DNA of 64,000 bases, taken from IMG/VR virus record IMGVR_UViG_3300025437_000011, positions 44,476-108,475 of that record; one strand, given 5' to 3'. The notes beneath the pieces are model-generated. The model searched no databases. It worked only from the letters and a program-made list of their open reading frames with translations, and was not told where the DNA came from. Source of the stretch: a virus. Each line of letters begins with the position of its first letter. Positions within the stretch are counted from its first letter, which is position 1. A program made the translations under genes and the position numbers. This document shows positions 11,000 to 64,000 of this stretch, piece after piece.

Positions 11000-11671
11000 A
11001 TGAAAAATAATTATATTATTGGTATTTCTGGCGCGTCTGGAGTAGGAAAGACTACTCTTGCAAATTTAATTTCCTTGCTATTTAATAGAGATGAGGTATT
11101 AATTTTAAGTGGTGATGATTTACACAAATGGGAAAGGCATAGTACAAACTGGAATACATATACACACTTTCATCCCGAAGCAAACAACTTGTCTTTAGGC
11201 TTTTCCGATTTACAAAATTTAAAGAGTGGCAATTCCATAAAAAGAAAAACTTATAATCACGATACGGGATTTTTCGATGAGTATCAGCACTTTAGCCCAA
11301 AACCATATATAATATATGAAGGTCTGCATTCTTTATATGGAGAAGATATTTTAAATTTAATTGACTTAAAAATATTCATAGATACCGATAATGAATTGAC
11401 TAACGAGTGGAAAATTAAAAGAGATATTTTAAAAAGAGGATATACTACACAGCAAGTACAAGAAACAATAATTAGAAGACAGGAGGATAGACTAAAATAT
11501 ATACTTCCACAAAAAAATAACTCTGATGTAGTTTTTACTTTTAAAAAATATCATAATAAAGTTGTTTTAGATTATATATTAATTAACGAACATCATGAGG
11601 ATATAGTAAAAAAAATCAAACATCTACATGATAGTCTGGTTCCAAGTCTTGGTGATGTTACAATTATTTAA
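11000..11671 (+). CDS. phosphoribulokinase/uridine kinase family protein
   Basis: GISGASGVGKTT, GDDLHKWER, HPEANNL, YNHDTG, EGLH. Confidence 0.8.
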   Translation: MKNNYIIGISGASGVGKTTLANLISLLFNRDEVLILSGDDLHKWERHSTNWNTYTHFHPEANNLSLGFSDLQNLKSGNSIKRKTYNHDTGFFDEYQHFSPKPYIIYEGLHSLYGEDILNLIDLKIFIDTDNELTNEWKIKRDILKRGYTTQQVQETIIRRQEDRLKYILPQKNNSDVVFTFKKYHNKVVLDYILINEHHEDIVKKIKHLHDSLVPSLGDVTII

Positions 11672-11716
11672 ACTTTAGACAAATATCCCTGAACAGATTA
11701 TAATTCATATTAATTT

Positions 11717-12556
11717 ATGAAAATTATAATTCCAATGGCCGGAACTGGGGATAGGTTTGTAAAAAAAGGATACAAAGAACCCAAGCCTCTTATTAAGGTA
11801 GCCGGAAAGAGAATTATCGAATATATCTTAGATATGTTTTCCCCAACAGAAGATGAAATTATATTTATTTGCAACAACAAGCATATCGAGGAGACAAATA
11901 TGGAAACTGAGCTTAAAAAGCTAGTACCAAATTGTAAAATTGTTTCCATACCTCCACACAAAAAAGGCCCAGTTCACACCGTAAAATACGCTTTCAATCT
12001 TATTGAAGACGATGAGCATGTTATAGTATCATATTGCGACAATCCGTTAGTATGGGATAGGTCAGATTTTGAGTTAAGTGTAAGCAAACTTGCTCTAGAC
12101 GGTTGCGTCCTAACACACACAGGATTTCATCCACACACATTAAATAATACTAAAATGGCTTTTCTAAAAACCGAAAATGGTTTAATGACAGAAATAAAAG
12201 AAAAAGAATGTTATACAGATAATCCAATGAACGAGCATGCGTCTACTGGTATTTACTATTTTAATACCGGAGCAATTTTGAAAAAATATTTTCAAGAAAT
12301 AATTGATTTGGATATTAACCATAATGGAGAATACTATGTAACGTTAGTATATAACCTATTACAGCGCGATGGTCTAAGGGTTGGGTACTATGATACACCT
12401 CATGTTACGGTTTTTGGCACCCCAGAAGAAGTAGAAAATTTTGAGGCATGGAATAATATTATTACAGGCGGTCAAATAAAAAATGAAAAAGATTTAATAA
12501 ATTGCTATAATTACTGGAAGAATTATCGAAACTTTAATACTAAAAATATTCTATGA
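11717..12556 (+). CDS. sugar-phosphate nucleotidyltransferase
   Basis: IIPMAGTGDRF...PKPLI, EK, NGEYYV, FGTPEE. Confidence 0.85.
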   Translation: MKIIIPMAGTGDRFVKKGYKEPKPLIKVAGKRIIEYILDMFSPTEDEIIFICNNKHIEETNMETELKKLVPNCKIVSIPPHKKGPVHTVKYAFNLIEDDEHVIVSYCDNPLVWDRSDFELSVSKLALDGCVLTHTGFHPHTLNNTKMAFLKTENGLMTEIKEKECYTDNPMNEHASTGIYYFNTGAILKKYFQEIIDLDINHNGEYYVTLVYNLLQRDGLRVGYYDTPHVTVFGTPEEVENFEAWNNIITGGQIKNEKDLINCYNYWKNYRNFNTKNIL

Positions 12557-13013: not shown

Positions 13014-13790
13014 ATGGATGCGATAATTCAGGGGCCAATATACGTAAATGACACTCCTAGTGTTATTTATAATTTATTAAATACGTCTTTTATTGATCGG
13101 GTAATCGTTTCTTGCTGGGAAAGTTGCCCAGATATATTTCCCCTTAATGACCGAGTGATAGTTATTAAAAATAAACCCAATGCTAATTCTGGGTATCAAA
13201 ACAGAAACTTACAAATTCAATCTACAAAAGCTGGTTTAGAAAAAGTAACTTCAGAATATTGTGCAAAATTTAGATCTGACCAGATAATTGCAATATCAAG
13301 TTTAGAAATGATGAATAGATTCTTTCATAAGTTTAAAGAATCTAATCTTAGATATACCAATGGTCTCAAACCGAAATCTAAAATTTTTGTTTGTGGAGAT
13401 TTTTGGCCATTACCATTTCATCCAAGAGATCATGTTTATTGGTCGGACACAGAAAGCATGAAAGTTTTATTTAGTTTGCCGTATGATGAATCACCAAAAT
13501 TTGATACGGAGCGCTTTAATGAGGCAACACGCGCAGAAACATATATTGGTAGTTACTATTATGCAAAATTTAATAGTGAGATCTATAAAATGATCGAACA
13601 GCAAGGTACTTACCTATGGGATAACGCCCCCAAAAGAAACGAGGCATTAGAACTATCACTTTCGATGAAAGACGAAGTTTTTAAAGTATTCCCAAGAATT
13701 GAGATGACTTGGCCCAAATATAATATCTACGGATATAAATATAATGAGCAATCAGTATGGGAAAGATGGCACGATGAAAAATGGGACTAA
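13014..13790 (+). CDS. WavE-like LPS synthesis / glycosyltransferase
   Basis: IIQGP, NRNLQIQSTKAGL, KFRSD, FHPRDH. Confidence 0.75.
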   Translation: MDAIIQGPIYVNDTPSVIYNLLNTSFIDRVIVSCWESCPDIFPLNDRVIVIKNKPNANSGYQNRNLQIQSTKAGLEKVTSEYCAKFRSDQIIAISSLEMMNRFFHKFKESNLRYTNGLKPKSKIFVCGDFWPLPFHPRDHVYWSDTESMKVLFSLPYDESPKFDTERFNEATRAETYIGSYYYAKFNSEIYKMIEQQGTYLWDNAPKRNEALELSLSMKDEVFKVFPRIEMTWPKYNIYGYKYNEQSVWERWHDEKWD

Positions 13791-13895
13791 TATGAAGACA
13801 GTTTTTATTACTACATATTCTTCCAGAAGAAATTTTAAAGAAAAAAGTTTATTTTAGATTTAAATTATTGTATACTGTAGTATATAAACACGCTT

Positions 13896-15140
13896 ATGAA
13901 TATCAAATATAGACAAACTTGCAGAATTTGTGGGAACCCTAATTTAGCACCAGTAATAGACTTGGGGAACCAGTATTTTCAAGGGTCTTTTATTAAAGAT
14001 GGCGTTACACCTCCTGCCACAAGAAAAACGCCCAACTTGATTGTTCGATGCGATACATCTAAATTCGAAGATGCGTGTGGTCTAATACAAACGCGTCATT
14101 CCGTCCCTGCTGATATATTATACAGCAACTATTGGTATCAGTCTGGTATCAGTAATACAATGAGAACTCATCTTAAAAATATTGTAGACGAATGCCTTAA
14201 AATTACCAATCTCTCCGAGGGTACTGTTCTAGATATAGCGTCAAATGACAACACTCTTTTAAGAAACTACCCCACAACTTTTAAAAAAGTTGGCGTTGAC
14301 CCCTCTGATATTGCAGGAAAACAAACTGATGAAGACATAAGAGTTATCAATACTGTTTTTCCTACGGAGAAACTTACAAATGAAAAGTTTGATATTGTAA
14401 CTTCCATAGCATGTTATTATGACGTTGAAGATCCAAAGTTTTTTGCTGAACAGGTGAGAGATCATTTAAATAATGATGGTATCTGGGTTTTTGAAGTTGC
14501 CTATTGGCCGCTAATGTTATCTAACCTATCTTATGATAGTATTGTTAATGAACATATTATTCACTATCACCTCGCCCCACTGGAGATCATGATGAATAAA
14601 ATAGGACTAAAAATTTTTAATGCAAGGAAAACCACTACAAATGGTGGAAGCATAATGGTATATATTTGCAAGTCTGAAAATACGAAATATGATCTAAAGG
14701 AAAACAAGGAGCGCCTCTTGACATTAAGACTAGAAGAATTTAATTCGGCTCTGGATGAGGAAAGCACTTATGTACTTTTTAGAGAAAAAGTCGAACAACA
14801 AAAAAATGATTTGCAATCTTTAATTAAAAAGATCCAAGCCGAAGGTAAAACCGTGCACATCTATGGTGCATCAACAAAACTTAACACCATTTTAGGATAT
14901 TGCGACCTTGGCCCAGAGTCAATAGAATATGCGGCAGAACGTAGTCCAGATAAATTTGGCGCAAAAACCATTAGCGGAATTAAACTTATTTCCGAAGAGG
15001 AGAGTCGCGCAATGAAACCAGATTATTATTTAGTTGGCCCATATCATTTTAAAGAAGAAATTCTAGCAAGAGAACAAGATACCATAAATTCTGGCACAAA
15101 GTTTATTTTCCCACTACCCACTGTGACAATAGTTGGATGA
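13896..15140 (+). CDS. NDP-sugar C-methyltransferase
   Basis: CRICG zinc site, DIASNDNTLL, DSIVNEH, GGS, YGASTK. Confidence 0.85.
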   Translation: MNIKYRQTCRICGNPNLAPVIDLGNQYFQGSFIKDGVTPPATRKTPNLIVRCDTSKFEDACGLIQTRHSVPADILYSNYWYQSGISNTMRTHLKNIVDECLKITNLSEGTVLDIASNDNTLLRNYPTTFKKVGVDPSDIAGKQTDEDIRVINTVFPTEKLTNEKFDIVTSIACYYDVEDPKFFAEQVRDHLNNDGIWVFEVAYWPLMLSNLSYDSIVNEHIIHYHLAPLEIMMNKIGLKIFNARKTTTNGGSIMVYICKSENTKYDLKENKERLLTLRLEEFNSALDEESTYVLFREKVEQQKNDLQSLIKKIQAEGKTVHIYGASTKLNTILGYCDLGPESIEYAAERSPDKFGAKTISGIKLISEEESRAMKPDYYLVGPYHFKEEILAREQDTINSGTKFIFPLPTVTIVG

Positions 15141-15496
15141 TGAAAATAAATCTACCAGAAGGTTATATATTTGATATACTTTCAATTTACCAAATAAAAT
15201 ATTCTAAATCAGCGCAATCTGAAGGTAATCTTAATTTAAGAAATTTTAATAATTTATTAAATGAAATAAAATCTCAGATAGGAAATAATCAAACTGATAT
15301 TATAATTAATAGCCAAGAATATGCCAATTTATTAAAAGCTAATTTAGAAACATTTGAATTAGTTGACGCAGTTAAAGTTAACCCATGCCTCGGAAAGGAA
15401 GTTGATGAATCTAACTATAATAGATTTTTAGCAAAAAAAACCCTACAAGAAAAATATTTTAATTCAACATATTCAGAAACCAAAATAGGTTATTAG
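15137..15496 (+). CDS. hypothetical protein
   Basis: ATGA overlap; DILSIYQIK...NYNRF pattern. Confidence 0.65.
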   Translation: MMKINLPEGYIFDILSIYQIKYSKSAQSEGNLNLRNFNNLLNEIKSQIGNNQTDIIINSQEYANLLKANLETFELVDAVKVNPCLGKEVDESNYNRFLAKKTLQEKYFNSTYSETKIGY

Positions 15497-38605: not shown

Positions 38606-39343
38606 ATGGACACAAAAACTGTTAGGCTTTTAAATAAACGTTTGGCTGGGCCACGTTTTCTAAAATACGTTGATGTAAGAGATGTTGATGATTATTTTAA
38701 TTTGCCCCTAGATCAGCGCGAACGTTGGGGTTTTTATCGTAAACCGTTTGCTCTTCCAATGGACGGCTCTATTTTGGAACGCGATAAGCCACTAACAATT
38801 ACCAAAGGTTGGACAGCTTGGGAAAATGAAATTAAAAAGCAATACCCCGTTCAGTGGTTCTTTCGTGAGTGGTTCTTAAGTTGGGACAATCCAGCCTATG
38901 CCTTCCTTAAAGGATTATATTTTGATTATAATAATTTGAAGGGTACAGTAAAACGTTTTATTAAACCTTTTTACCCACGTTTTCGCAAGGCATGTCCTCG
39001 TCATAAATATTCTGACATTTCAGAACTTACACGGGAAATTAACTTCGCATTAATTCTAGATTTCTGGTATGAAGAAATGGTAGATGGAGTTGTTGATTGG
39101 CAGGATAACAATGCACATAAACAATTCTTTAAGCAGATCAAGGCCGCAGTTAAATATATTGAAGTTGACCGTCCAAAGCTAGAAGCACAATCGGATTCAG
39201 CACTAACTATTGCAACAAATAAAAAGAAGGGAACTTTTGAACAGCGTTATGGGAAACATCAGGCCCTTGAAAACAAGACGCGCGAGAAAGACACTGAACT
39301 TCTCGTTTGGATGATGCAACAAAGAGAAATGTTTTGGACATGA
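38606..39343 (+). CDS. hypothetical protein
   Basis: TTGATT(38571)-17-TAAGAT upstream; 245 aa. Confidence 0.7.
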   Translation: MDTKTVRLLNKRLAGPRFLKYVDVRDVDDYFNLPLDQRERWGFYRKPFALPMDGSILERDKPLTITKGWTAWENEIKKQYPVQWFFREWFLSWDNPAYAFLKGLYFDYNNLKGTVKRFIKPFYPRFRKACPRHKYSDISELTREINFALILDFWYEEMVDGVVDWQDNNAHKQFFKQIKAAVKYIEVDRPKLEAQSDSALTIATNKKKGTFEQRYGKHQALENKTREKDTELLVWMMQQREMFWT

Positions 39344-40344
39344 GTAAAATTTTAATTATCGAATCTACTAGCAAGACCAAGCCGCTTGCAGAAGACTTTA
39401 GCGATACTAGTATCGTTCATTGTAGAAACTCTATTATCCTAAAGAATTATCTAGGGGCCGACCTACTGGATGGTGAATATAAATTACCACAAATCGTTAA
39501 TAATAAGTATGATGTGATTATTTGTTGCTATGCTTCGCCCTATATGCCGCATATTCCATATCGGCAAATTATAGATAATAACCCCGGCGCTAGACTTGTT
39601 TGGCTAGTAAACGATCATGACCTAGAGGATAATCAGCTTCTTCGTTACGCTATTTTACAGGGTAGAACTTACGACATGATTTGCAACAATCCGAGAGGTG
39701 GTTATCGTCATTGGATTCTAGGAAAGAATATTGAAGGAAAGAAGTTAAATGACTTTATTATTAACTGGCACACAACTAATTTAAACTCTCTTATCTTTAG
39801 GGACACTAGACATCTTCCCGTTCGTGAGAATAAAAATGGTTTTATTTACTATGGAACCTACAGGAAACACCGAGCAGATGATTTTAAAGCCTTTTTACGA
39901 AAGGGCATGACAGTCTCTAGTAGCATTAAGCATTGGAAGAAGTACGAGGCAATTGGTTGCGATTCCGAATTTATTCGCCCCCTAACTTGGCAAAAAGATA
40001 ACGAAGACTTGAGAAACTATCAATACAGTCTTTATTTGGAAGATAAACACACGCATGATAATTATGCGTTCCTAGCTAATCGTTTTTATGAGGCGCTAAT
40101 GTGCGATGTTGTTACTCTATTTGCGCCCAATACAATTAATACTGTTGATCGTGCAGTAAATAGTGGACTAGAAATTCCCGCTTCAGTTATCCTACCAGAT
40201 AACTCTTACAATGGAAAAGTTCAGAAGTTCATTGAATCTCTAGATTTTAATTCGTTTATTAAATACCAAAGAGACAATTACTTTGACCAAATTTTGGCGG
40301 AGCGTGAAATGGTACTTTATGGAATTAAAGATTTTTTAAGTTAA
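39340..40344 (+). CDS. T4 beta-glucosyltransferase-like (GT63) putative DNA glycosyltransferase
   Basis: Collinear motifs KILII, YDVII, VWLVND, IYYGTYR..R, DKHTHDNY...RFYEALMCD resemble T4 BGT as recalled. Confidence 0.6.
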   Translation: MSKILIIESTSKTKPLAEDFSDTSIVHCRNSIILKNYLGADLLDGEYKLPQIVNNKYDVIICCYASPYMPHIPYRQIIDNNPGARLVWLVNDHDLEDNQLLRYAILQGRTYDMICNNPRGGYRHWILGKNIEGKKLNDFIINWHTTNLNSLIFRDTRHLPVRENKNGFIYYGTYRKHRADDFKAFLRKGMTVSSSIKHWKKYEAIGCDSEFIRPLTWQKDNEDLRNYQYSLYLEDKHTHDNYAFLANRFYEALMCDVVTLFAPNTINTVDRAVNSGLEIPASVILPDNSYNGKVQKFIESLDFNSFIKYQRDNYFDQILAEREMVLYGIKDFLS

Positions 40345-56300: not shown

Positions 56301-56537
56301 ATGCAAAACGTAATTACGGAAACATATTTAATTGAGATTAAAATGCCGGACACAGAAAAATGGCTAGATGTGGGATTAAATAGTCGTTGGAAAACTCTTG
56401 AAGAAGCCGAACAGGAAATGCAGAAAATAGCTTCTCCCTATGGAGACCAATATAATTTCAGAGTCGGTCATATTGTTTGCACCCAAACAATCTTGAAAGA
56501 AATTACTGGTGAACGAAAAATTACCTTGCTAGAATAA
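56301..56537 (+). CDS. hypothetical protein
   Basis: Tightly packed ORF. Confidence 0.6.
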   Translation: MQNVITETYLIEIKMPDTEKWLDVGLNSRWKTLEEAEQEMQKIASPYGDQYNFRVGHIVCTQTILKEITGERKITLLE

Positions 56538-56560
56538 ACAAATTATTTTAGAATAAAAAA

Positions 56561-57163
56561 ATGGGAATGTTTAATTATATATTTTGCCGTAAGAAGTTAC
56601 CACTTTGCACCTTAACCAAAGGTTTGAAAGTTGACTGGAAAAACATGGACTTTCAAACGAAAGACATGGATTGCCTAATGAACACTTATGAAATAACCCC
56701 TAGGGGCCGTCTTCGTCAGCGGAAAAACCGTTGGTTCTGGAAGGATGAAGAACCTTCCGAGCAAGACAAGGAACCGGAATGGATTAACTCTGATTATACT
56801 GGAAGTATTAATTTTTACGCTACTGTATATTCTGAACCTGGATATATTGATATTGCTTGGGAAAATATAACCGAACAGGTTATTGAAGATTGTGACGTAA
56901 TAGAATATTGGGTAGAGTTTGTAGCGATTTTTTACAAAGGAAAACTCGAAGAATTAGAGTGGTATAAAACCGACGCGCACCCAGTAAAGGAACAGTTAAT
57001 TAATGAAAAAAGATGGTATGAAGAAAGGCTCGCAAAAGATCGCCTTATTCAAAATAGAATTAAAAGAGTTCTACGAAAGGTGCCGGGCTATAGGCAGCTA
57101 ACTCAATCCCTACGAAAGTTTGTTGAATTCCAAAGTAAGATAGTTAATAAACTATATTATTAA
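56561..57163 (+). CDS. conserved hypothetical phage protein
   Basis: MGMFNYI.C...FQTKD..C.M..YEI motif. Confidence 0.7.
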   Translation: MGMFNYIFCRKKLPLCTLTKGLKVDWKNMDFQTKDMDCLMNTYEITPRGRLRQRKNRWFWKDEEPSEQDKEPEWINSDYTGSINFYATVYSEPGYIDIAWENITEQVIEDCDVIEYWVEFVAIFYKGKLEELEWYKTDAHPVKEQLINEKRWYEERLAKDRLIQNRIKRVLRKVPGYRQLTQSLRKFVEFQSKIVNKLYY

Positions 57164-57678
57164 AAAGGAAGAACGTAGAAGCGTGTTGTTCCGCTATGAT
57201 TCGGAACATATCTGCCGCCCATATAATTAGCGTTGCCACTCTGTTCAACAGAAACAACAACAGAGCCGGGCCCTATAATGTGCGCATAATTACCAGAAAT
57301 TGTTGCGACTTCCGTATCCCAACTAGTAAAATGGACTGGAAGTCCGACGTTTGATTCGCCACTCAACAAATAAGTAGTATGCCCACCAGTTGCGTCTGGA
57401 ACGATAGTAGGAGGATATTGAACTAATTTTTGTGTGCCCCTATAAATAAATATACCAGTCCAAGCACGACCATGAAAAGTTCCTTCGGAATCAAAAAAAT
57501 CAGCAAAAATAGTTGCCCTACCAGCCGAAGTAATATTAATATAATTTCCACTACAAACATGAATAGGCTCAATAGTAGTAGTTGAATATACTGGAGTTAA
57601 TCCCTCGATATCAGTTACCGCTTCAACTTGAAAAGGAGGATTACCAAAGGTTTGAGAGGGGATTGGATTAAATTGCAT
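57160..57678 (-). CDS. Ig-like repeat protein, probably virion-associated
   Basis: Two repeats with GLxx(V)xxxS...VATISGN...G...V...QSGNANY pattern; GTGTAAT upstream. Confidence 0.6.
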   Translation of the reverse strand: MQFNPIPSQTFGNPPFQVEAVTDIEGLTPVYSTTTIEPIHVCSGNYINITSAGRATIFADFFDSEGTFHGRAWTGIFIYRGTQKLVQYPPTIVPDATGGHTTYLLSGESNVGLPVHFTSWDTEVATISGNYAHIIGPGSVVVSVEQSGNANYMGGRYVPNHSGTTRFYVLPF

Positions 57679-57802
57679 ATATAAAAATATTACACTTAAA
57701 AATTTGTATTGTTAAAGATAATAAACTAATTGATAAGGGTTATCTAAAAATATTTATAAAACACAGCTTGACACGCTATCAAAATAATTCTACAATTTAA
57801 AA

Positions 57803-57985
57803 ATGAAGACCATTAAAAGATACGATCCCTACCTTTCAGATTGCGGAGAAGCAGACCTAGAAGAGAGCCCAAGCGGTGACTGGGTTTCCTACTACAAGTA
57901 TGCTGACCTTTACAAGAAATACATTCGGGCACGTTCCGCCCTGAATAAGGTTAAAATTAAAAAAGAAATTAAAAAGAACCAATAA
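57803..57985 (+). CDS. hypothetical protein
   Basis: TTGACA(57768)-17-TACAAT-6-ATG. Confidence 0.65.
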   Translation: MKTIKRYDPYLSDCGEADLEESPSGDWVSYYKYADLYKKYIRARSALNKVKIKKEIKKNQ

Positions 57986-58001
57986 GCTGGTATAATAAAT
58001 A

Positions 58002-58718
58002 ATGAAGAATATCCTGCAGTTTGGTACTTGTAGAACACACCAGTTAACTTCGTTTAACAACGAAGAGATTACATTCACGAATCTTCTACCAAGAGTCCAC
58101 ACAACAAAGGAGGCTATTCAATATTTAGAGAAACGTCATAAATATAAGGGGCCTATTGATTTTATAATGATCGAGATTTCAACCCTAAAACTTTTTGAAA
58201 AGGATGGTAAATATTTTTACGGGGGCAGTGAAGAGGCAAAGGATATTAATCCAACAATTCAAACAGAAGAAATATTCAAGCAAGATATTGAAGAATTTTA
58301 TAAAGCCTTAGATATACCCCTGTTATTTGTTGGTCATTTAGATTTAGATTTTTATGATATACATGATGGGCATATAAGTAGACAACGTAAAATTATAGAT
58401 AATTATATTCAAAAGTATTGTCATAATTACCTTATATTTAGGGACTTATATAAAGATTATGATTATCACCAATTAGTCAAAGCACCAAAAGATACGCATC
58501 ATTTAAATCATTTTGCTTATGAGTTACTGTACGATGCTGTTGTTAATAAAATAAATAGTATGGAACCGATAAAATATAATCCGGTTAGAAATATTATTAC
58601 TTCCGCACTTTCTTCTTGCGAACAGGTTATCGACTGGAATAAACAGCCTGATGGCTCAATTATAGCCAATCTTCCATCTGCTAACTATAAAATTACTATC
58701 GAAGAACAACTATCCTAA
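58002..58718 (+). CDS. SGNH/GSCFA-like protein (paralog of 35503)
   Basis: FGTCR, HTTKE, IEISTLK, DTHH. Confidence 0.55.
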   Translation: MKNILQFGTCRTHQLTSFNNEEITFTNLLPRVHTTKEAIQYLEKRHKYKGPIDFIMIEISTLKLFEKDGKYFYGGSEEAKDINPTIQTEEIFKQDIEEFYKALDIPLLFVGHLDLDFYDIHDGHISRQRKIIDNYIQKYCHNYLIFRDLYKDYDYHQLVKAPKDTHHLNHFAYELLYDAVVNKINSMEPIKYNPVRNIITSALSSCEQVIDWNKQPDGSIIANLPSANYKITIEEQLS

Positions 58719-58723
58719 AAATT

Positions 58724-58936
58724 ATGTTAATTCAAATTATTAAAGTATCCGCCGCTATTATTTTGGGGACAATAGCATTTGGAATAGTCTTATTCTTCGT
58801 TCATTTTTTGTTTAGCTTACTGCTTGCAATGATTCAGGGGATTCGAGAAGGCTGGCGGGAAATTTTGCATGAAAATAGAGTGTCGTCATTTAAGGAATTG
58901 GTAGCAAAGAAAAGGAAAGAAAAAGGAAAACAATAA
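58724..58936 (+). CDS. membrane protein
   Basis: N-terminal TM segment. Confidence 0.55.
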   Translation: MLIQIIKVSAAIILGTIAFGIVLFFVHFLFSLLLAMIQGIREGWREILHENRVSSFKELVAKKRKEKGKQ

Positions 58937-59244
58937 TGCAGCCAAAACGTCCCGGTCAATTTGCATGGAAAGTTTGTGCGGCAATTTTTGCGCCCATTCT
59001 GGCAATAGCACTGGGAATAATTCTTGCCGTACACCTTTCTGATGATGGGCCAGTTCATTATTACCAAATAGAAAGATTAAATCTTGATGGTAAGGTTCAA
59101 CAAGTTTACTTCTCAAAGGGGCGGTTTCCTTGGGCCGGGGAGCATGAGGTATCGTTTCGTTCGTATCCCTCTGGAAATTTTATACATATTAGTGCAAACT
59201 ATACCGTAGAGGATATTGGAACTAATGCGCCCGAAACCCTATAA
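58936..59244 (+). CDS. membrane-anchored hypothetical protein
   Basis: TM segment; TAATG coupling. Confidence 0.55.
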   Translation: MQPKRPGQFAWKVCAAIFAPILAIALGIILAVHLSDDGPVHYYQIERLNLDGKVQQVYFSKGRFPWAGEHEVSFRSYPSGNFIHISANYTVEDIGTNAPETL

Positions 59245-59249
59245 TAATA

Positions 59250-59432
59250 ATGAATGAAAACTCTTTTAATTTAATTAATGACTTTACAATGCTATTTCTT
59301 GCCATTGGATTTATTGGATTTTTATTCATGATCTCTCCGGGCTTCAGAAAAATGCTTAAGAGAAACAAGAAAATTCGCGCAAAACACAGAAGATTAAAGG
59401 AAAACTCAAAAGCAAGAGACTTTCAAATATGA
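59250..59432 (+). CDS. small membrane protein
   Basis: TM segment plus basic tail. Confidence 0.5.
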   Translation: MNENSFNLINDFTMLFLAIGFIGFLFMISPGFRKMLKRNKKIRAKHRRLKENSKARDFQI

Positions 59433-59695
59433 AAACAGAACAGGATGATATTGATTATTTAAGGGCATTTTCCGCAGATGTTATTGCATCGTTAACATTG
59501 GCGCAAAACTATGACTTGAAAAAAGTAGCCTATGCTATTGATAACCTATTGAATGAAGAGTTCGGAACTCTGATTTCTACCAAAGAGAATAAAAGTAAAT
59601 TTAAATGTGCCGGGGGCGACCATCGCTATAATTATGACCTATTTGATACTTCAAAAGAGAAGTATTGCATAGATTGTGGGTGCCGGGCCACTTGA
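59429..59695 (+). CDS. hypothetical protein with C-terminal zinc-ribbon-like motif
   Basis: C..GDH...CIDCG. Confidence 0.55.
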   Translation: MKTEQDDIDYLRAFSADVIASLTLAQNYDLKKVAYAIDNLLNEEFGTLISTKENKSKFKCAGGDHRYNYDLFDTSKEKYCIDCGCRAT

Positions 59696-59751
59696 CTTGT
59701 CCCCCAAAAAAGGACACAATACAAGAAATCAATACTTTTAAAAAGGACACA

Positions 59752-59970
59752 ATGAAAAAATTAAAATGCGTATGGTGTTGCAAGGACACCGAAACCATTC
59801 CTTGTCAAAATTGTGGTAAAACCGATACGGTTTGTGATCCCTATGTGGAGCATCAACCTTATTGGAGTCGTTATACTATTCATTTGGTAGAATGTTCCAT
59901 ATGTGGCAGGACTACCACTTATGATAAACAAACCAATCATCCTTGCCCACCTAAATCTTATGAAGAATAA
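59752..59970 (+). CDS. small zinc-finger protein
   Basis: CVWC, CQNC, CSIC. Confidence 0.55.
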   Translation: MKKLKCVWCCKDTETIPCQNCGKTDTVCDPYVEHQPYWSRYTIHLVECSICGRTTTYDKQTNHPCPPKSYEE

Positions 59971-60223
59971 AAAGAAAAAGAAAGAAAAATTCAATTACGA
60001 ACTCATTCGTAATGCAGAGCAGTTCTTGTCAGATCTGAACAATGCAACGATTGAAAAACTTCATTTTGAAGTGGAGAACGAAAAATATTACGAGACTCCT
60101 GATTGGCTACAGAATCGTTATAATCAAGCCATGCAGGATCTTGGTCGTTGGATAGTTAGGGAATATCAAGAAGATGATGATTATATGAATGCCTTAGGAT
60201 CTACTGGTGATACAGATTTTTAA
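59960..60223 (+). CDS. hypothetical protein
   Basis: Start at MKNKKKK. Confidence 0.55.
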   Translation: MKNKKKKKEKFNYELIRNAEQFLSDLNNATIEKLHFEVENEKYYETPDWLQNRYNQAMQDLGRWIVREYQEDDDYMNALGSTGDTDF

Positions 60224-60304
60224 TTTTGTAATCTTCGCACTACATATTTCAGAGATATGTATAAGGATGTTGACAATTTAGACAAAAGCATATAGAATAC
60301 TGTG

Positions 60305-60565
60305 ATGAATAAAAGTAAAATAATTAATGATTCAGAGGACTATAAAGGTACTGATGATGAATTAAAAGATTTTTTTTCTACTCATCATATCGTAGAAAAG
60401 AATTGTGAGTTTCATGCATTTAATGGTTATCGAACTGATAGATACATTGTAGAATCTGATAATGATAAAACAAAATATGAATTAAGAGTTAACTACAATC
60501 CAATGGATGAAACATTTACTCTTATTACTGGACCAAATAAAATTGAAATTAACTACAATATATAA
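60305..60565 (+). CDS. hypothetical protein
   Basis: TTGACA(60270)-17-TAGAAT-6-ATG. Confidence 0.65.
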   Translation: MNKSKIINDSEDYKGTDDELKDFFSTHHIVEKNCEFHAFNGYRTDRYIVESDNDKTKYELRVNYNPMDETFTLITGPNKIEINYNI

Positions 60566-60567
60566 CC

Positions 60568-61236
60568 ATGCCTAAGAAAAAAGAACATAAGAAAGTCACT
60601 GTTACCTTTGACGAAAGACATCTTCCTGTTATCGCAAGAGCATTGGAAGTATTCATGCGTATGCGTAGTGGTCAGATAACTATGGCATTGGATGAGTGCT
60701 ATGCTGACAAGCAGACCGAGATGCTCAAGGATGAGAACTATGATCACTTCAATGATAATAAAGATATTGAAGCTCTTATTAGAAAGGTATATTTCAAGGA
60801 TCTTGGTTCTCCTAATGCCGCATGGGGAGTTGGTCAGTATGGATTTGGAGGAGAGGAAGCCTATATGATTTGGAAGACTCTTAGACAATACATGGCATAT
60901 GAAAGAAACGGAGGATATGCTGGTTCTGGTCGTGACTTTGATACTACTTGGGGAAACTATTCCGAAGTCCCTAATCCAGTTGTTCAAGGTTTTAGTACTA
61001 GGAAGTTTTTTGTTGCTCCCAAGAGTTTGCAAAAGGAACTTTATATATTGGTTGATAATGGAGCTTATAAAGAATATAAAGAAGCTTTTGATCTAATTGA
61101 TAAGAAATGGAAGACTTTACCTAAAGGTGACAAGTATGAGATTGGAATTAAAAAAGAATACGATGGTGATGATATACCAGTTCCAATTGTTGGTGTATGG
61201 GTAACAGCACCAAGAAAGAAAGAGGAGGGTTGGTAA
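60568..61236 (+). CDS. hypothetical protein
   Basis: 222 aa; ALEVFMRMRSGQ. Confidence 0.7.
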   Translation: MPKKKEHKKVTVTFDERHLPVIARALEVFMRMRSGQITMALDECYADKQTEMLKDENYDHFNDNKDIEALIRKVYFKDLGSPNAAWGVGQYGFGGEEAYMIWKTLRQYMAYERNGGYAGSGRDFDTTWGNYSEVPNPVVQGFSTRKFFVAPKSLQKELYILVDNGAYKEYKEAFDLIDKKWKTLPKGDKYEIGIKKEYDGDDIPVPIVGVWVTAPRKKEEGW

Positions 61237-61237
61237 T

Positions 61238-61627
61238 ATGCAAAGAGAAATTAAATTCAGATTTTGGGATCATGATCTAAAAAAATTCATTGAAGATTCT
61301 AATGCTGATCCACATATTTGCTGGAATGGTACTGTATATTGCCATGAAAGACAAAAAGAAGGTGGAGATGTTCTTGTATCTGGTATTAGAAACCTTACTG
61401 TTCAGCAATACACTGGTATCAAAGATAAGAATGGAGTTGAGATCTATGAAGGAGACATCATCAAATATCCAATTCCAGTAGGATGGTCAACAAATAGTCT
61501 TCATAGGGAGAATTATAGAGTTGATGAAGTAAAGTTTGTTACAGGTTGCTTCATTCCACATATTTGGAGAACAGTTGTTGATGACTGTGAAGTAATTGGT
61601 AATGTATTTGAGAAGGATAAAATCTAA
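61238..61627 (+). CDS. YopX-family protein
   Basis: REIKFRFWD, QYTGIKDKNGVEIYEGDI, EVIGNVFE. Confidence 0.9.
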   Translation: MQREIKFRFWDHDLKKFIEDSNADPHICWNGTVYCHERQKEGGDVLVSGIRNLTVQQYTGIKDKNGVEIYEGDIIKYPIPVGWSTNSLHRENYRVDEVKFVTGCFIPHIWRTVVDDCEVIGNVFEKDKI

Positions 61628-61631
61628 TAAT

Positions 61632-62135
61632 ATGAAAACAATCTTAGCATTCCTTTTAATGTCTGTATCACTTTGTGCTGCTTCATCCTTTAGTGGTGGT
61701 GGATGTAGAAGCTCATTTAGTAGTACAAGAAGTATGTCATTAAGCTCCAGTAGAAGTTCTTTTAGTTCATCATCTAGTAAGAGCTTTAGTAGTTCATCTT
61801 CAGCTAAGTCTTTTAGCCCAAGTTACAGACCTAACTCATATAGTGCTTACAGATCATATAGCTATAGACCATATGCCTATAGACCTGTAACATTTGTTCC
61901 TTATTCCTATTCTAATCCTTTTAATAATGTATGGTTCTGGATGTATATGATGCATAATAATAGTGTATTTGATCATCATAGTGATTTAGAGAACTGGGAT
62001 GGTAATGCTGATCAGAATGATAAACCTACATATGAAGGTGGATCTGACTTAAATGAGTCCATACTTTACACATTTATTGGAGTAATGGCAGTTTTTGTTG
62101 TGGTTATTATTATAATTGGAGTTTTAAACCTATGA
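61632..62135 (+). CDS. Ser-rich membrane-anchored protein
   Basis: Signal peptide, poly-Ser tract, WFWMY, C-terminal TM. Confidence 0.7.
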   Translation: MKTILAFLLMSVSLCAASSFSGGGCRSSFSSTRSMSLSSSRSSFSSSSSKSFSSSSSAKSFSPSYRPNSYSAYRSYSYRPYAYRPVTFVPYSYSNPFNNVWFWMYMMHNNSVFDHHSDLENWDGNADQNDKPTYEGGSDLNESILYTFIGVMAVFVVVIIIIGVLNL

Positions 62136-62344
62136 TCGTAGCACTTACAATTACATTCTCATCCATTTGGATTCCTATCATCCTATCCATTGCTCTTGCC
62201 ATCTTTGGTGGTAAAAACCTAAATGATGCAAGTGATGGTTCTCTTTTTGGAGACTTTGGTTTAGCATTACTTGGAATCTTTTGCTTCATCTGTGCCTTTT
62301 TTGTCTGGACACTTTACTTCACTGTGTTATACTTTTTGAAATGA
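62132..62344 (+). CDS. two-TM membrane protein
   Basis: Hydrophobic; ATGA overlaps. Confidence 0.6.
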   Translation: MIVALTITFSSIWIPIILSIALAIFGGKNLNDASDGSLFGDFGLALLGIFCFICAFFVWTLYFTVLYFLK

Positions 62345-62748
62345 AATACAAAGATACTATATTTGCAATTGACTTTGATGGTACTTGTGTTACTCATGAA
62401 TTTCCTAAGGTAGGAAGGTTTGTAGGTGCACAAAAGGTTCTTAAGAGACTTGTAGATGAAGGAGCTAGGCTTATTCTTTGGACAATGAGGAGTGATGGAA
62501 GAGAGGGACAAGAGTATGCCAATCCTCTTACTGATGCTGTTAATTGGTTTAATGAAAATCAGATTCCTTTGTTTGGTGTTAATGAGAATCCAGAGCAAAA
62601 GACTTGGACAGGTTCTCCTAAAGCATATGCTCATATCTATATTGATGATGCAGCATTAGGCATCCCTCTTGTTAAAGGACTTAATGGTGAAAGACCTTAT
62701 GTTGATTGGGATAAGGTAGAAGAATTGTTATTTGGAGATATTCAATAA
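62341..62748 (+). CDS. HAD-family hydrolase
   Basis: AIDFDGTCV, LILWTMR, VNENP, YIDD. Confidence 0.85.
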   Translation: MKYKDTIFAIDFDGTCVTHEFPKVGRFVGAQKVLKRLVDEGARLILWTMRSDGREGQEYANPLTDAVNWFNENQIPLFGVNENPEQKTWTGSPKAYAHIYIDDAALGIPLVKGLNGERPYVDWDKVEELLFGDIQ

Positions 62749-62749
62749 T

Positions 62750-62911
62750 ATGGACAACACAAACATTAACATTAGACTCTTTGGTTGGCATCTTCAGCTT
62801 GAGATTGGTAAATGGCTTCCAACAATTAGCTATAATGGGTATCATAAGGAGAGTAACTACTCAGATGGATACTTTAAGATCTATAACTTCTATGGATATA
62901 GACAAGATTAA
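62750..62911 (+). CDS. small hypothetical protein (53 aa, not in ORF track)
   Basis: MDNTNINIRLFGWHLQ...; fills the gap between neighbours. Confidence 0.55.
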   Translation: MDNTNINIRLFGWHLQLEIGKWLPTISYNGYHKESNYSDGYFKIYNFYGYRQD

Positions 62912-62912
62912 T

Positions 62913-63176
62913 ATGATTAAAAGAAACCTACACAGTCCATTAAAGATTGAGATTGTGCTCAAAGCACATTATCATCCAAAGTATATGATCAACAGATGGA
63001 ATAAAGCAGAAGTTGAGGTTGCTAGTCAATTACTAAAAGATCATATCTTAGTAAGATTTGCTGAACATGATTCTGATGCTGATCAACTTACACTCACAGA
63101 AAAAGGAAAAGCTTTTGTTGAAATGATTCTCAATACACCTTATCCTATTCAGAGTTGGACTGATCCTAGAAATTAA
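62913..63176 (+). CDS. hypothetical protein (winged-helix-like LTEKGK)
   Basis: Start at MIKRNLH. Confidence 0.55.
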   Translation: MIKRNLHSPLKIEIVLKAHYHPKYMINRWNKAEVEVASQLLKDHILVRFAEHDSDADQLTLTEKGKAFVEMILNTPYPIQSWTDPRN

Positions 63177-63177
63177 T

Positions 63178-63300
63178 ATGACTCCACAAACTAGAGATTT
63201 AATTTTAGAGCTTTGCTTTTGGTGTCCCTTTCTATTTGTCTTAGGAATAGGGGCTGGGTTACTTGCATTAGCTATGCTTGGATTCTTTGATAGAGATTAA
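63178..63300 (+). CDS. 40-aa membrane peptide (not in ORF track)
   Basis: MTPQTRDLILELCFWCPFLFVLGIGAGLLALAMLGFFDRD. Confidence 0.5.
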   Translation: MTPQTRDLILELCFWCPFLFVLGIGAGLLALAMLGFFDRD

Positions 63301-63303
63301 TTT

Positions 63304-63570
63304 ATGAACATTATACAAGAAAACAAATTAGATGAAATATCTAAAAAGATTGATGAGCTTCAAAAGCAAATCAATTACCAGAATGAATGTATTATGGATC
63401 AGTCTATGATTATCCAAAAGCTAATTGAGAAGCTTGTAGTCATTCCAACCTATACATCTACTCCAAGTATTGATCCTCATTTTGGAAAAGACATTCCTTA
63501 TGTTCCATATAAAGGACCAGATTGTAAAGTAAGTGCAGATTCTTTACCAGATAGAGAATGGTATGGTTAA
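63304..63570 (+). CDS. hypothetical coiled-coil protein
   Basis: 88 aa ORF. Confidence 0.6.
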   Translation: MNIIQENKLDEISKKIDELQKQINYQNECIMDQSMIIQKLIEKLVVIPTYTSTPSIDPHFGKDIPYVPYKGPDCKVSADSLPDREWYG

Positions 63571-63602
63571 TTTTCTTGACACCTCCTCCTAAAGCATATA
63601 GA
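63568..63602 (+). repeat. 35-bp promoter repeat, copy 1
   Basis: TAATTTTCTTGACACCTCCTCCTAAAGCATATAGA, identical to 63875-63909. Confidence 0.9.
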
Positions 63603-63613
63603 CTATAAGAATC

Positions 63614-63877
63614 ATGAAAAACAAACTATACTTGTATCTCATCTCACAGAATGTCAACAATGACTATGACACTTATGATTCAGCAGTTGTTGCGGCTCCT
63701 AATCCAAAAGCTGCAAAGCTAATACATCCTAATGTTAATTATGTGTTGTCAGAACTAGATTGGACAACAGATCTTACTTGGTGCAATTCACCTAATTATG
63801 TAAATGTGAAGTGTATTGGTATAGCATCTAAAGGTCAAAAAGTAGGTGTTGTTTTATCTTCTTATAATGCTGGATAA
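63614..63877 (+). CDS. hypothetical phage protein
   Basis: LYLISQ..N.DYDTYDSAVVAA...S.NAG. Confidence 0.7.
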   Translation: MKNKLYLYLISQNVNNDYDTYDSAVVAAPNPKAAKLIHPNVNYVLSELDWTTDLTWCNSPNYVNVKCIGIASKGQKVGVVLSSYNAG

Positions 63878-63909
63878 TTTTCTTGACACCTCCTCCTAAA
63901 GCATATAGA
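63875..63909 (+). repeat. 35-bp promoter repeat, copy 2
   Basis: TTGACA(63883)-17-TAGAAT(63906)-6-ATG(63918). Confidence 0.9.
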
Positions 63910-63917
63910 ATAAGATT

Positions 63918-64000
63918 ATGACTGAACCTTTATTTCCTAGAGTTGGATTAAAGCAAGTATTGTCTGAAAAAGATAGAACAGAACAATTGCAAATGAATTC
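63918..64000 (+). CDS. hypothetical protein (3'-truncated by window)
   Basis: MTEPLFPRVGLKQ... Confidence 0.55.
   Translation, partial: MTEPLFPRVGLKQVLSEKDRTEQLQMN

Follow-up and report, generated by a model that had tools for sequence, protein, structure and literature searches.

The question raised by this locus is why the closing part of a lake phage contig should be nearly devoid of a single dinucleotide, CG. The analyzed window (the whole stretch of DNA, 64,000 nucleotides) comprises the last 64 kb of a 108,475-bp contig (G000), and the CG-free zone is, thus, seen only up to the contig end. Within the window are genes for a class I RNR, a DnaB-like helicase and a phrog_405 DNA polymerase.

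CG depletion at the contig end

Positions 60965-64000 contain three CG (61161, 62137 and 63693) vs. 85.3 expected from base composition (observed/expected ratio, o/e, 0.04), with a Poisson P of ~1e-32, or ~4e-28 when scaled to the backbone o/e of 0.87. This confirms both the depletion and the three positions given in an earlier sequence-only reading of this DNA. Elsewhere in the contig, CG o/e varies between 0.5 and 1.15 per kb, and the two longest CG-free gaps of the whole contig (1556 and 976 bp) both fall within this segment, the next one being 273 bp long. The G+C content is flat across the boundary (0.34 in the CG-free segment vs. 0.35). The lack of GGCC, also pointed out in that reading, is real but weightless, as only 0.5–2.5 copies are expected. 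The features of the region are as follows:

60270..60298, + strand: degenerate cassette promoter copy (TTGACA-17-TAGAAT) within CG-normal DNA, separated from the ATG at 60305 by 6 nt
60302..60565, + strand: 87-aa ORF, function unassigned, CG-normal (CG at 60391 and 60431)
60568..61236, + strand: 222-aa anchor gene of no known family, containing the CG boundary (last CG at 60963)
61189..61236, + strand: last 48 nt of the anchor gene, with 100% identity among four phage contigs
60965..64000, + strand: CG-free segment, proximal part of the cassette array, running to the contig end
61238..61627, + strand: YopX-family protein, 129 aa, 0 CG, start codon 1 nt past the anchor stop
61632..62135, + strand: Ser-rich 167-aa protein of no known family, with hydrophobic N- and C-terminal segments (by eye)
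62132..62344, + strand: 70-aa hydrophobic protein of no known family
62341..62748, + strand: small HAD-like phosphatase (phrog_1238; PDB 2obb, E 1e-9)
62835..63176, + strand: 113-aa cassette gene with 82–88% identity to its counterparts in G001 and G002, all three having 0 CG
63304..63570, + strand: 88-aa cassette gene with 59–61% identity to its counterparts in G001 and G002 and 52% to that in G003, 0 CG
63576..63605, + strand: cassette promoter copy 1, differing from the 30-nt consensus at one position, with 8 nt between it and the ATG at 63614
63614..63877, + strand: 87-aa cassette gene (phrog_5444, function unassigned)
63883..63912, + strand: cassette promoter copy 2, matching the 30-nt consensus exactly, with 5 nt between it and the ATG at 63918 (6 nt from the -10 hexamer)
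63918..64000, + strand: next cassette gene, 5' part only, interrupted by the contig end

The depletion is independent of gene identity, as previously proposed. All three codon phases are purged, and codons ending in a pyrimidine show a ratio of 141 T to 1 C before G vs. 245 T to 90 C when any other base follows. Arginine in CG-free genes is coded entirely by AGR, at a normal Arg frequency, and the 64 ± 7 CG expected from the proteins and backbone codon usage compare with two observed. A generic purge of restriction sites is not seen: CG (strictly, VCG) alone is banned, while the palindromes GATC, AGCT, TGCA and CTAG show no depletion, all being at expectation in the CG-free segment. Classical restriction-site avoidance depletes specific 4–6 bp palindromes, whereas here every CG context is lost, with TCGA, itself a palindrome, the least depleted. 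The cassette DNA is held almost CG-free by selection on DNA words at the dinucleotide level. Since the arrays described below are lower in CG than any backbone carrying them, this selection acts on the array itself.

The anchor gene and a likely joint at the boundary

The boundary lies within the ORF 60568-61236, where that reading had placed it, with nine CG in the first 397 nt and one in the last 272 nt (vs. 6.8 expected, P ~0.02 taken alone). The ~10 CG that the anchor gene keeps are mostly at conserved positions in the first 400 nt, and the same split is found in three homologues from other contigs. Anchor homologues adjoin arrays in G001, G002, G003 and G005. The anchor protein has no match in PDB, Pfam, PHROG or Atlas, and its predicted structure (pLDDT 56 from five sequences) is of too low confidence for a fold search.

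Logan contigs from two other runs begin at or near the anchor 3' end (61189 and 61211); together with the identical 48-nt end, this makes the anchor 3' end a likely recombination joint. A joint at this position would account for the location of the CG boundary within an ORF. The half of the anchor gene that retains CG is, in G000, probably co-transcribed with the CG-free genes.

Promoters and array architecture

The arrays consist of small co-oriented genes, many of them headed by an identical 30-nt sigma-70-type promoter located 5–10 nt from the ATG. The repeated promoters noted earlier are, thus, real, with 30-mers at 63576 and 63883 and the degenerate copy at 60270. They match the sigma-70 consensus at 10–11 of 12 positions. 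The ATG following copy 2 is so close to its -10 hexamer that the mRNA is predicted to be leaderless. Beyond G000, the 30-mer is present in nine copies in G002 (0–1 mismatch) and 15 copies in G001 (0–4 mismatches), as well as in L089, L185 and L189; in its exact form, it occurs in 29 stretches of ~20 viral contigs. A 600-bp stretch with o/e < 0.2 follows 38 of 47 promoter copies (vs. 8.4% of all windows), and a few isolated copies drive CG-containing genes or sit in CG-normal DNA. None of 185,579 species genomes contains an exact match to the 24-nt promoter core. A terminator scan revealed no hairpin beside the promoter copies, the sole match in the zone (at 62647) being inside the HAD gene. 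To judge by promoter type, the cassette genes are probably expressed early.

Distribution and exchange among freshwater phages

The promoter and cassettes recur in ~20 otherwise weakly related freshwater phage contigs, in CG-free arrays of 2.5–27 kb bordered by CG-normal DNA; no long non-coding repeat region is seen at the array borders. Most of these contigs were seen with CG-normal flanks and none was seen to be CG-free throughout, with o/e values of 0.03–0.1 for arrays vs. 0.37–0.87 for backbones. Two of the phages, G001 and G006, are CG-poor genome-wide (o/e ~0.4). The gene starting at 63918 likewise sits within CG-free arrays (5.5–9.5 kb total) in other metagenome contigs; lengthening of G000 by means of these contigs was dropped, as they represent other phages.

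G000 (144 ORFs) shares 28 ORFs with G002, 7 with G001 and 11 with G003. With so few genes in common, the view of these four phages as close relatives was rejected in favor of a shared mobile module, as opposed to a conserved position. Cassettes of G000 are 52–88% identical to their homologues in G001–G003, reaching 94–97% between some relatives, and codons for identical residues differ in 7–20% of cases in cassettes vs. ~50% in RNR genes. The cassette order varies between contigs at 79–99% nucleotide identity, and branch points of the assembly graph lie at the promoters and 61189, with loose ends at 63461-63921. As far as contig comparison goes, this demonstrates an exchange of cassettes among co-occurring freshwater phages through recombination at the promoters and the anchor 3' joint.

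Among 346 substitutions between cassette orthologues, ~14 new CG would be expected and ~5 are seen. CG poverty of homologues wherever they lie, which the sequence-only reading had named as counting against a positional effect, applies to the close homologues, which are CG-free throughout (as is the whole cassette pool), but not to the distant ones, which are CG-normal. Later arrivals in the arrays (such as homing-endonuclease-like genes and a NAMPT gene) still contain CG, and endonuclease-like genes on the opposite strand within the arrays retain it as well. In G005, the CG-free DNA forms a patchwork interrupted by CG-normal blocks of 1–4 kb, and not one terminal block. In contig L111, two YopX paralogues are surrounded by a less pronounced CG-poor island (o/e ~0.2) that lacks the repeated promoter; this island was excluded from the argument. 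Genomes of crAss001-like gut phages are wholly CG-free (o/e 0.01–0.03), and they harbor the nearest out-group relatives of the HAD gene (55–62% aa identity), annotated as polynucleotide kinase/phosphatase. A literature search retrieved no report of CG-free phage islands or CG-free crAss001-like genomes; one paper that surfaced, PMC13037316, coincides in nothing but the acronym 'CPGD'.

Residual CG context

In 78.5 kb of pooled arrays compared with backbones, o/e amounts to 0.016 for VCGB, 0.10 for sites with TCG on one strand and 0.25 for TCGA (0.87, 0.69 and 0.48, respectively, in backbones). Residual CG is symmetric under reverse complement, with 5'-T and 3'-A equally enriched (e.g., 24 ACGA vs. 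19 TCGT), which suggests a reader of VCG on double-stranded DNA. CCGG is absent from the arrays, and it is common among the residual contexts of crAss001-like phages. A description of the bias as YCGR vs. RCGY (McrBC-like) was dropped, since the larger set shows a T-specific bias in which CCGG does not occur and the banned half-site is VCG.

We tentatively propose, with somewhat less than even confidence, that lake bacteria or phages have a factor reading VCG on both strands of double-stranded DNA, and that an immediate-early phage gene pool has been rewritten without VCG to survive it. A related pressure may stand behind the genome-wide absence of CG in gut crAss001-like phages. A 3-bp VCG specificity would be shorter than that of any restriction system known to us, and we know of no bacterial defence enzyme with a 2–3 bp CG specificity.

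Possible origins of the CG-free arrays

The explanation that we prefer is a hyperplastic early-gene cassette array purged of CG. Its descriptive part (a cassette array, its exchange and selection against CG) is held with high confidence; the statement as a whole, including the mechanism, appears somewhat favored on balance. The agent would be a factor reading VCG on double-stranded DNA, with a host defence nuclease or DNA binder as the likeliest candidate. The array would be more exposed to it than the rest of the genome, since the array has to remain whole and serve as a template for host RNA polymerase during the first minutes of infection, ahead of phage countermeasures; genome entry that is stepwise or driven by transcription, as known for T5 and T7, could provide the route. 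In our analysis, a leading, first-delivered end remains the best candidate mechanism, as the sequence-only reading had suggested. The contig ends within arrays reflect fragmentation of the assembly graph by promoter repeats and common cassettes, and are not mapped termini; k-mer depth in Logan contigs showed no clean twofold step of the kind that a terminal repeat would give. Against the preferred explanation stand the patchwork in G005 and the probable shared transcript in G000, which a nuclease that kills by a single cut at any place in the entered DNA should not tolerate. The isolated promoter copies that drive CG-containing genes and the lack of a known bacterial defence enzyme with such a short CG specificity weigh against it as well.

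Some of these observations would also fit a compositional legacy, i.e., a recent import of cassettes from a wholly CG-free phage reservoir, where the ban would have been selected, leaving a zone without positional or functional meaning in this phage. Such an import would agree with the much greater likeness of cassettes than of backbones between phages and their limited synonymous divergence, with a boundary that coincides with a recombination joint within both an ORF and an operon, with isolated promoter copies in CG-normal DNA, with the CG-poor genomes of G001 and G006, and with the existence of wholly CG-free phages carrying a relative of the HAD gene. We nevertheless consider it unlikely, if worth keeping in view: CG-normal flanks prevail, no contig was seen to be CG-free throughout, arrays are always below their own backbone, divergence of the cassettes produced fewer CG than expected, and the crAss001-like candidates are gut phages related in one gene and differing in residual contexts. 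Selection could alternatively act on transcripts, with a host or phage RNase or RNA sensor reading CG in the earliest mRNAs and each unit being purged separately. The ban does track promoter-headed units, it may be patchy along the DNA, and the opposite-strand endonuclease-like genes do keep CG. What makes this improbable is the strand symmetry of the residual context, as for a double-strand reader, along with the CG-bearing anchor part that probably shares an mRNA with CG-free genes and the CG poverty of some phage backbones in all gene classes.

Self-modification of C or G in CG by the phage, with early genes kept free of targets for the sake of host RNA polymerase or to escape type IV nucleases, would explain a ban limited to units read by the host polymerase and would tolerate the patchwork; G001, moreover, carries an N6/N4 methyltransferase. 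However, G000–G003 (two of them 93–100% complete) lack a C5-MTase (PF00145), for which controls matched, and a dCMP hydroxymethylase/ThyA-like protein (PF00303), and no TGT/DpdA was found in G000 or the relatives searched. TET/JBP (PF12851) had no match in the phages searched, the control genomes likewise giving none. The ORF 39340-40344, previously taken as BGT-like, has no Pfam, PHROG or PDB match. Hypermodification by MTase, TET and glycosyltransferase needs a C5-cytosine MTase, and T4-type glucosylation of hmC requires a dCMP hydroxymethylase plus a beta-glucosyltransferase; with neither the C5-MTase nor the dCMP hydroxymethylase found in G000–G003, this earlier suggestion is unsupported and, in our estimate, quite improbable. 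Mutational decay, whether by host CG methylation and 5mC deamination or by a context-specific deaminase acting fastest in heavily transcribed DNA, is even harder to accept. The 82 CG lost from 60965-64000 do equal the excess of TG + CA (81), but AG and CT are raised as well, the unchanged Arg frequency with exclusive AGR usage calls for transversions or two-step changes, the abrupt boundaries fall within a transcription unit, and the VCGB o/e is far below any mutational CpG decay known to us. A chimeric assembly or a sequencing artefact at 60.9–61.2 kb, to which the location at a contig end and the nearby graph branching might point, is practically negligible. The check for continuity called for in that reading gave a 5.2-kb Logan contig that bridges 56464-61660 (4.5 kb and 0.7 kb on either side) and may derive from the source sample, the order of anchor gene followed by CG-free genes recurs in G001, G002 and G003, and contigs from other metagenomes show this type of junction. 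Runs X2, X5 and X6 have read cover only from ~60.8–61.2 kb onward; holes of this type prove nothing and are not used as evidence for a cassette occurring apart from the G000 backbone.

Relation to known phage systems

In T5, only the first-step-transfer DNA is open to restriction (PMC10644984). The pre-early region of T5/BF23 is without host-nuclease words, which do occur in the remainder of the genome, where protection comes later (Davison and Brunel 1979, cited in PMC10644984). The arrays resemble this first-step-transfer DNA as a block of small takeover genes with strong host-type promoters and absent target words, the order of expression being predicted here. They differ in that T5 avoids particular 6-bp sites, whereas here a 2–3 bp word is banned across 2.5–27 kb; in that the T5 block has been mapped as a terminal repeat and contains an injection stop signal, whereas the arrays are known from contig fragments; and in being patchy at times and exchanged among weakly related phages.

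A second likeness is to PeSL cassettes in hyperplastic regions of T4-type phages, where an early promoter is repeated between small accessory ORFs (PMC2839356, PMC4122927). Both systems share a conserved early promoter between small ORFs and gene swaps with junctions at the repeats. However, the PeSL promoter is joined to a stem-loop terminator, no half of which was found beside the promoter here; the promoter of the arrays abuts the ATG, giving predicted leaderless mRNAs; the backbone, with its DnaE-type polymerase, does not appear to be T4-like; and a dinucleotide ban is no part of the PeSL description. The host-takeover module of the Bacillus phage SPO1 comprises about two dozen small early genes with many strong host-type early promoters in one block, much like the arrays, but it sits in a mapped 13-kb terminal repeat, and we know of no report of an absent dinucleotide there.

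Implications

A near-total ban confined to a mobile and apparently first-expressed gene set, common to many weakly related phages, would represent the footprint of a strong agent. This footprint gives the specificity of the agent (VCG on both strands, with TCGA largely spared), which can be searched for in host genomes. Within the phage, it is the cassettes that would meet the host without protection, which makes them a good place to search for anti-defence genes. CG-free islands with repeated promoters account for assembly breaks in these phages, and such islands could mark the early-gene regions of uncultured phages.

CG depletion at the contig end

The window is the final 64 kb of a 108,475-bp IMG/VR contig (CheckV completeness 70%), and its last stretch, positions 60965-64000 (the zone), holds three CG dinucleotides (61161, 62137, 63693) vs. 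85.3 expected from base composition (observed/expected ratio, o/e, 0.04; Poisson P ~1e-32 to 4e-28). The abrupt CG-poor zone proposed in the sequence-only reading is thus borne out by the binned CG o/e, which ranges from 0.58 to 1.14 in all other 1-kb bins of the window, while the absence of GGCC, also noted there, is statistically not significant. G+C content does not shift between the zone and the rest; the zone contains the contig's two longest runs without CG (1556 and 976 bp), and the third longest is 273 bp. A search across the 108,475-bp contig, the start of which is CG-normal, revealed no further CG-poor parts.

The CG boundary lies inside a 222-aa ORF of no known family (60568-61236, the anchor gene). 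A chimeric assembly at this point, named earlier as a possible refutation, was looked for and is ruled out: a 5198-nt Logan contig of metagenome run X1, possibly the source sample, spans 56464-61660, and the same junction recurs in other viral contigs. The anchor ORF has ~80%-identical homologues in four such contigs, with CG-poor DNA directly 3' of it in all three that reach far enough, and this recurrent order is more telling against a chimera than the bridging contig. The homologues compared (viral contigs G001-G003) have ~9-13 CGs each; most occupy shared positions in the 5'-most 400 nt, and the final third has few. The gene ends in a 48-nt stretch, with its first base at 61189, that is identical in four genomes, and Logan contigs begin at 61189 or 61211. 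The runs holding window sequence are freshwater lake metagenomes; in one of them, X5, a contig connects 60953 with 61189 and represents a variant in the population, with the variable C-terminal part of the anchor gene replaced.

Promoter-headed arrays as a mobile mosaic

The zone is part of an array, a run of small co-oriented cassette genes, many of them headed by the same 30-nt element, TTGACACCTCCTCCTAAAGCATATAGAATA, which has a degenerate copy at 60270 and two copies in the zone:

63576-63605, + strand: cassette promoter copy, match to the 30-nt element
63883-63912, + strand: cassette promoter copy, match to the 30-nt element

By its sequence, the element is a predicted consensus-like -35/17/-10 promoter ending 5-8 nt upstream of ATG, so that the mRNAs would be leaderless or nearly so. 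The spacer in both copies holds CACCTCCTCC, which resembles the 3' end of 16S rRNA and whose opposite strand resembles a Shine-Dalgarno run; either likeness may be due to chance.

The 30-mer occurs in nine copies in G002 (0-1 mismatch) and 15 in G001 (0-4 mismatches), as well as in the L089 stretch and metagenome contigs L185 and L188/L189, almost all of these copies lying within CG-free DNA; an exact-match scan placed it in 29 stretches of ~20 viral contigs (11-226 kb). The promoter arrays form blocks with 0-2 CG per 500 bp and CG-normal DNA on both sides. The 600 bp following the promoter have o/e < 0.2 for 38 of 47 copies vs. 8.4% of all windows, and a few isolated copies head CG-containing genes. 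Contigs with the gene that is cut by the window end are CG-free over 5.5-9.5 kb in total, after which CG returns; viral contig G004 has a CG-free block at positions 4-31 kb, and the CG-free DNA of viral contig G005 is a patchwork at positions 1.4-30.5 kb. A 4-kb CG-poor island in an unrelated 68-kb viral contig (L111:8500-12500, o/e ~0.2) surrounds two YopX paralogues and lacks the repeated promoter.

The phage contig of the window (G000) has 28 of 144 ORFs in common with G002, 7 with G001 and 11 with G003, and the zone genes are syntenic with, and 52-88% identical to, their homologues in these contigs. Throughout its genome, G001 (IMGVR_UViG_3300032236_001631; L219) is poor in CG (o/e 0.37). 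Among the G001/G002/G003 relatives, some cassettes reach 94-97% identity, and cassettes recur in differing orders at 79-99% nucleotide identity. At identical residues, 7-20% of codons differ in the zone genes vs. ~50% in the shared RNR genes; therefore, the cassettes separated far more recently than the backbones, and their proteins change fast or in patches. The proteins of cassettes 61238-63570 are only 62-86% identical to their G001/G002 orthologues even though so few identical-residue codons differ, and the changes occur in clusters; the combination points to replacement patch by patch or to diversifying selection, which would be expected of arms-race genes. A likely recombination joint explains the position of the CG boundary within an ORF, and contigs terminate in arrays because repeats break assembly, not because of genome termini: in the Logan assemblies, loose ends accumulate at the promoter repeats (63461-63921), and contigs begin within the 48-nt stretch shared by four genomes. 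Among described architectures, the PeSL cassette system of T4-type phages (PMC2839356, PMC4122927) comes closest; a stem-loop half is absent beside the promoter here.

The interruptions of the arrays include the following genes:

L223:534-1349, 11567-12385, 13071-14003 and L224:10572-11291 (G005), opposite strand: ORFs with weak HNH / endonuclease VII PHROG hits
L220:15491-17032 (G004): nicotinamide phosphoribosyltransferase (NAMPT) gene, CG o/e 0.54

The four G005 ORFs are CG-normal paralogues (35-51% identical) inside CG-free arrays, two of them flanking a 37%-identical anchor-gene homologue, and are likely homing endonucleases; the NAMPT gene breaks up a 27-kb CG-free array. Both look like later insertions.

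A selected ban on a DNA word

Within eight zone genes, CG is absent from all three codon phases, with a single NCG codon in total. Arg frequency is 3.6% vs. 3.5% in the backbone, with AGA/AGG as the only Arg codons. When the next codon starts with G, pyrimidine-ending codons have T in 141 cases and C in one, vs. 245 T and 90 C when it starts with another base. Re-coding the zone proteins with backbone codon usage predicts 64 +/- 7 CGs, compared with 2 observed, and GATC, AGCT, TGCA, CTAG, AATT and other 4-bp palindromes occur about as often as expected across 18.6 kb of pooled zone DNA. The depletion is a ban on a DNA word, reflecting neither codon usage nor amino-acid content.

Selection acts on the arrays as such. 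Their CG o/e is 0.03-0.1, with carrier backbones at 0.37 (G001) to 0.87 (G000). Among array orthologues, 346 substitutions would have created ~14 new CGs at random and ~5 exist, a shortfall providing modest support since orthologue pairs are not independent. An alternative would be that the arrays are imports from wholly CG-free phages. Such DNA is found in crAss001-like Bacteroides gut phages, where every examined stretch of 6.7-31 kb (Kehishuvirus loci L007-L038, L040, L044-L046 and L088, found via the HAD-phosphatase gene of the zone) is nearly CG-free (o/e 0.01-0.04; PhiCrAssBcn24, 14 CG vs. 957 expected over 31 kb), with AG and CT elevated; the literature searched contained no report of CG-free crAss001-like genomes. 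However, their residual CGs (mostly TCGA, CCGG, ACGA and ACGG, with CCGG common) have contexts unlike those of the lake arrays. Of the promoter-bearing contigs, most of which were read only in part, none was seen to be CG-free throughout. Homologues that are CG-poor wherever they lie, named earlier as a possible refutation, are seen among the close ones, which belong to the CG-free cassette pool; distant homologues of the zone genes in other phages are CG-normal.

Possible reader of the word and mechanism

The pooled arrays (78.5 kb) hold 159 CGs, and their context counts take in homologous cassettes and are, thus, not fully independent. Depletion is strongest for VCGB, in which the base 5' of CG is not T on either strand (o/e 0.016 in arrays vs. 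0.87 in backbone), followed by TCG on one strand (0.10 vs. 0.69) and TCGA (0.25 vs. 0.48). In the residual array CGs, 5'-T and 3'-A are similarly enriched, and reverse-complement contexts are similar in count (ACGA 24, TCGT 19). This grading by the number of VCG half-sites, together with strand symmetry, fits a double-stranded-DNA reader better than an RNA reader. We consider it highly probable that a selected, strand-symmetric (V)CG ban is confined to the promoter-headed mobile cassette array.

Modification of C by the phage itself, the other explanation offered in the sequence-only reading, finds no support in the gene searches. Pfam searches of G000-G003 (two of them 93-100% complete) yielded no C5-methyltransferase, TGT/DpdA or thymidylate-synthase-like hydroxymethylase, and no TET/JBP match, the controls for the latter being uninformative. 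No Pfam, PHROG (E <= 1e-5) or PDB sequence match (E <= 10) was obtained for the supposed BGT-like (T4 beta-glucosyltransferase-like) gene at 39340-40344, nor any Pfam match for the partner upstream of it (38606-39343). The only N6/N4 DNA methyltransferase among these four contigs is in G001 (14353-15168), just past its arrays.

A simple leading-end picture, with the array as the end of the genome that enters first, is countered by the patchwork of CG-free DNA in G005, by the CG-carrying half of the anchor gene, which probably shares a transcript with the CG-free genes, and by the repeat-induced nature of the array-end contig breaks. T7-like transcription-driven entry would be compatible with the dense co-oriented host promoters. 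The nearest model for exposure of the array is first-step transfer in T5/BF23, where restriction reaches first-step-transfer DNA only (PMC10644984). An exposure-window mechanism, for and against which we find the case evenly balanced, would make the array an immediate-early region functioning as naked DNA, which would be transcribed by the host polymerase before counter-measures exist.
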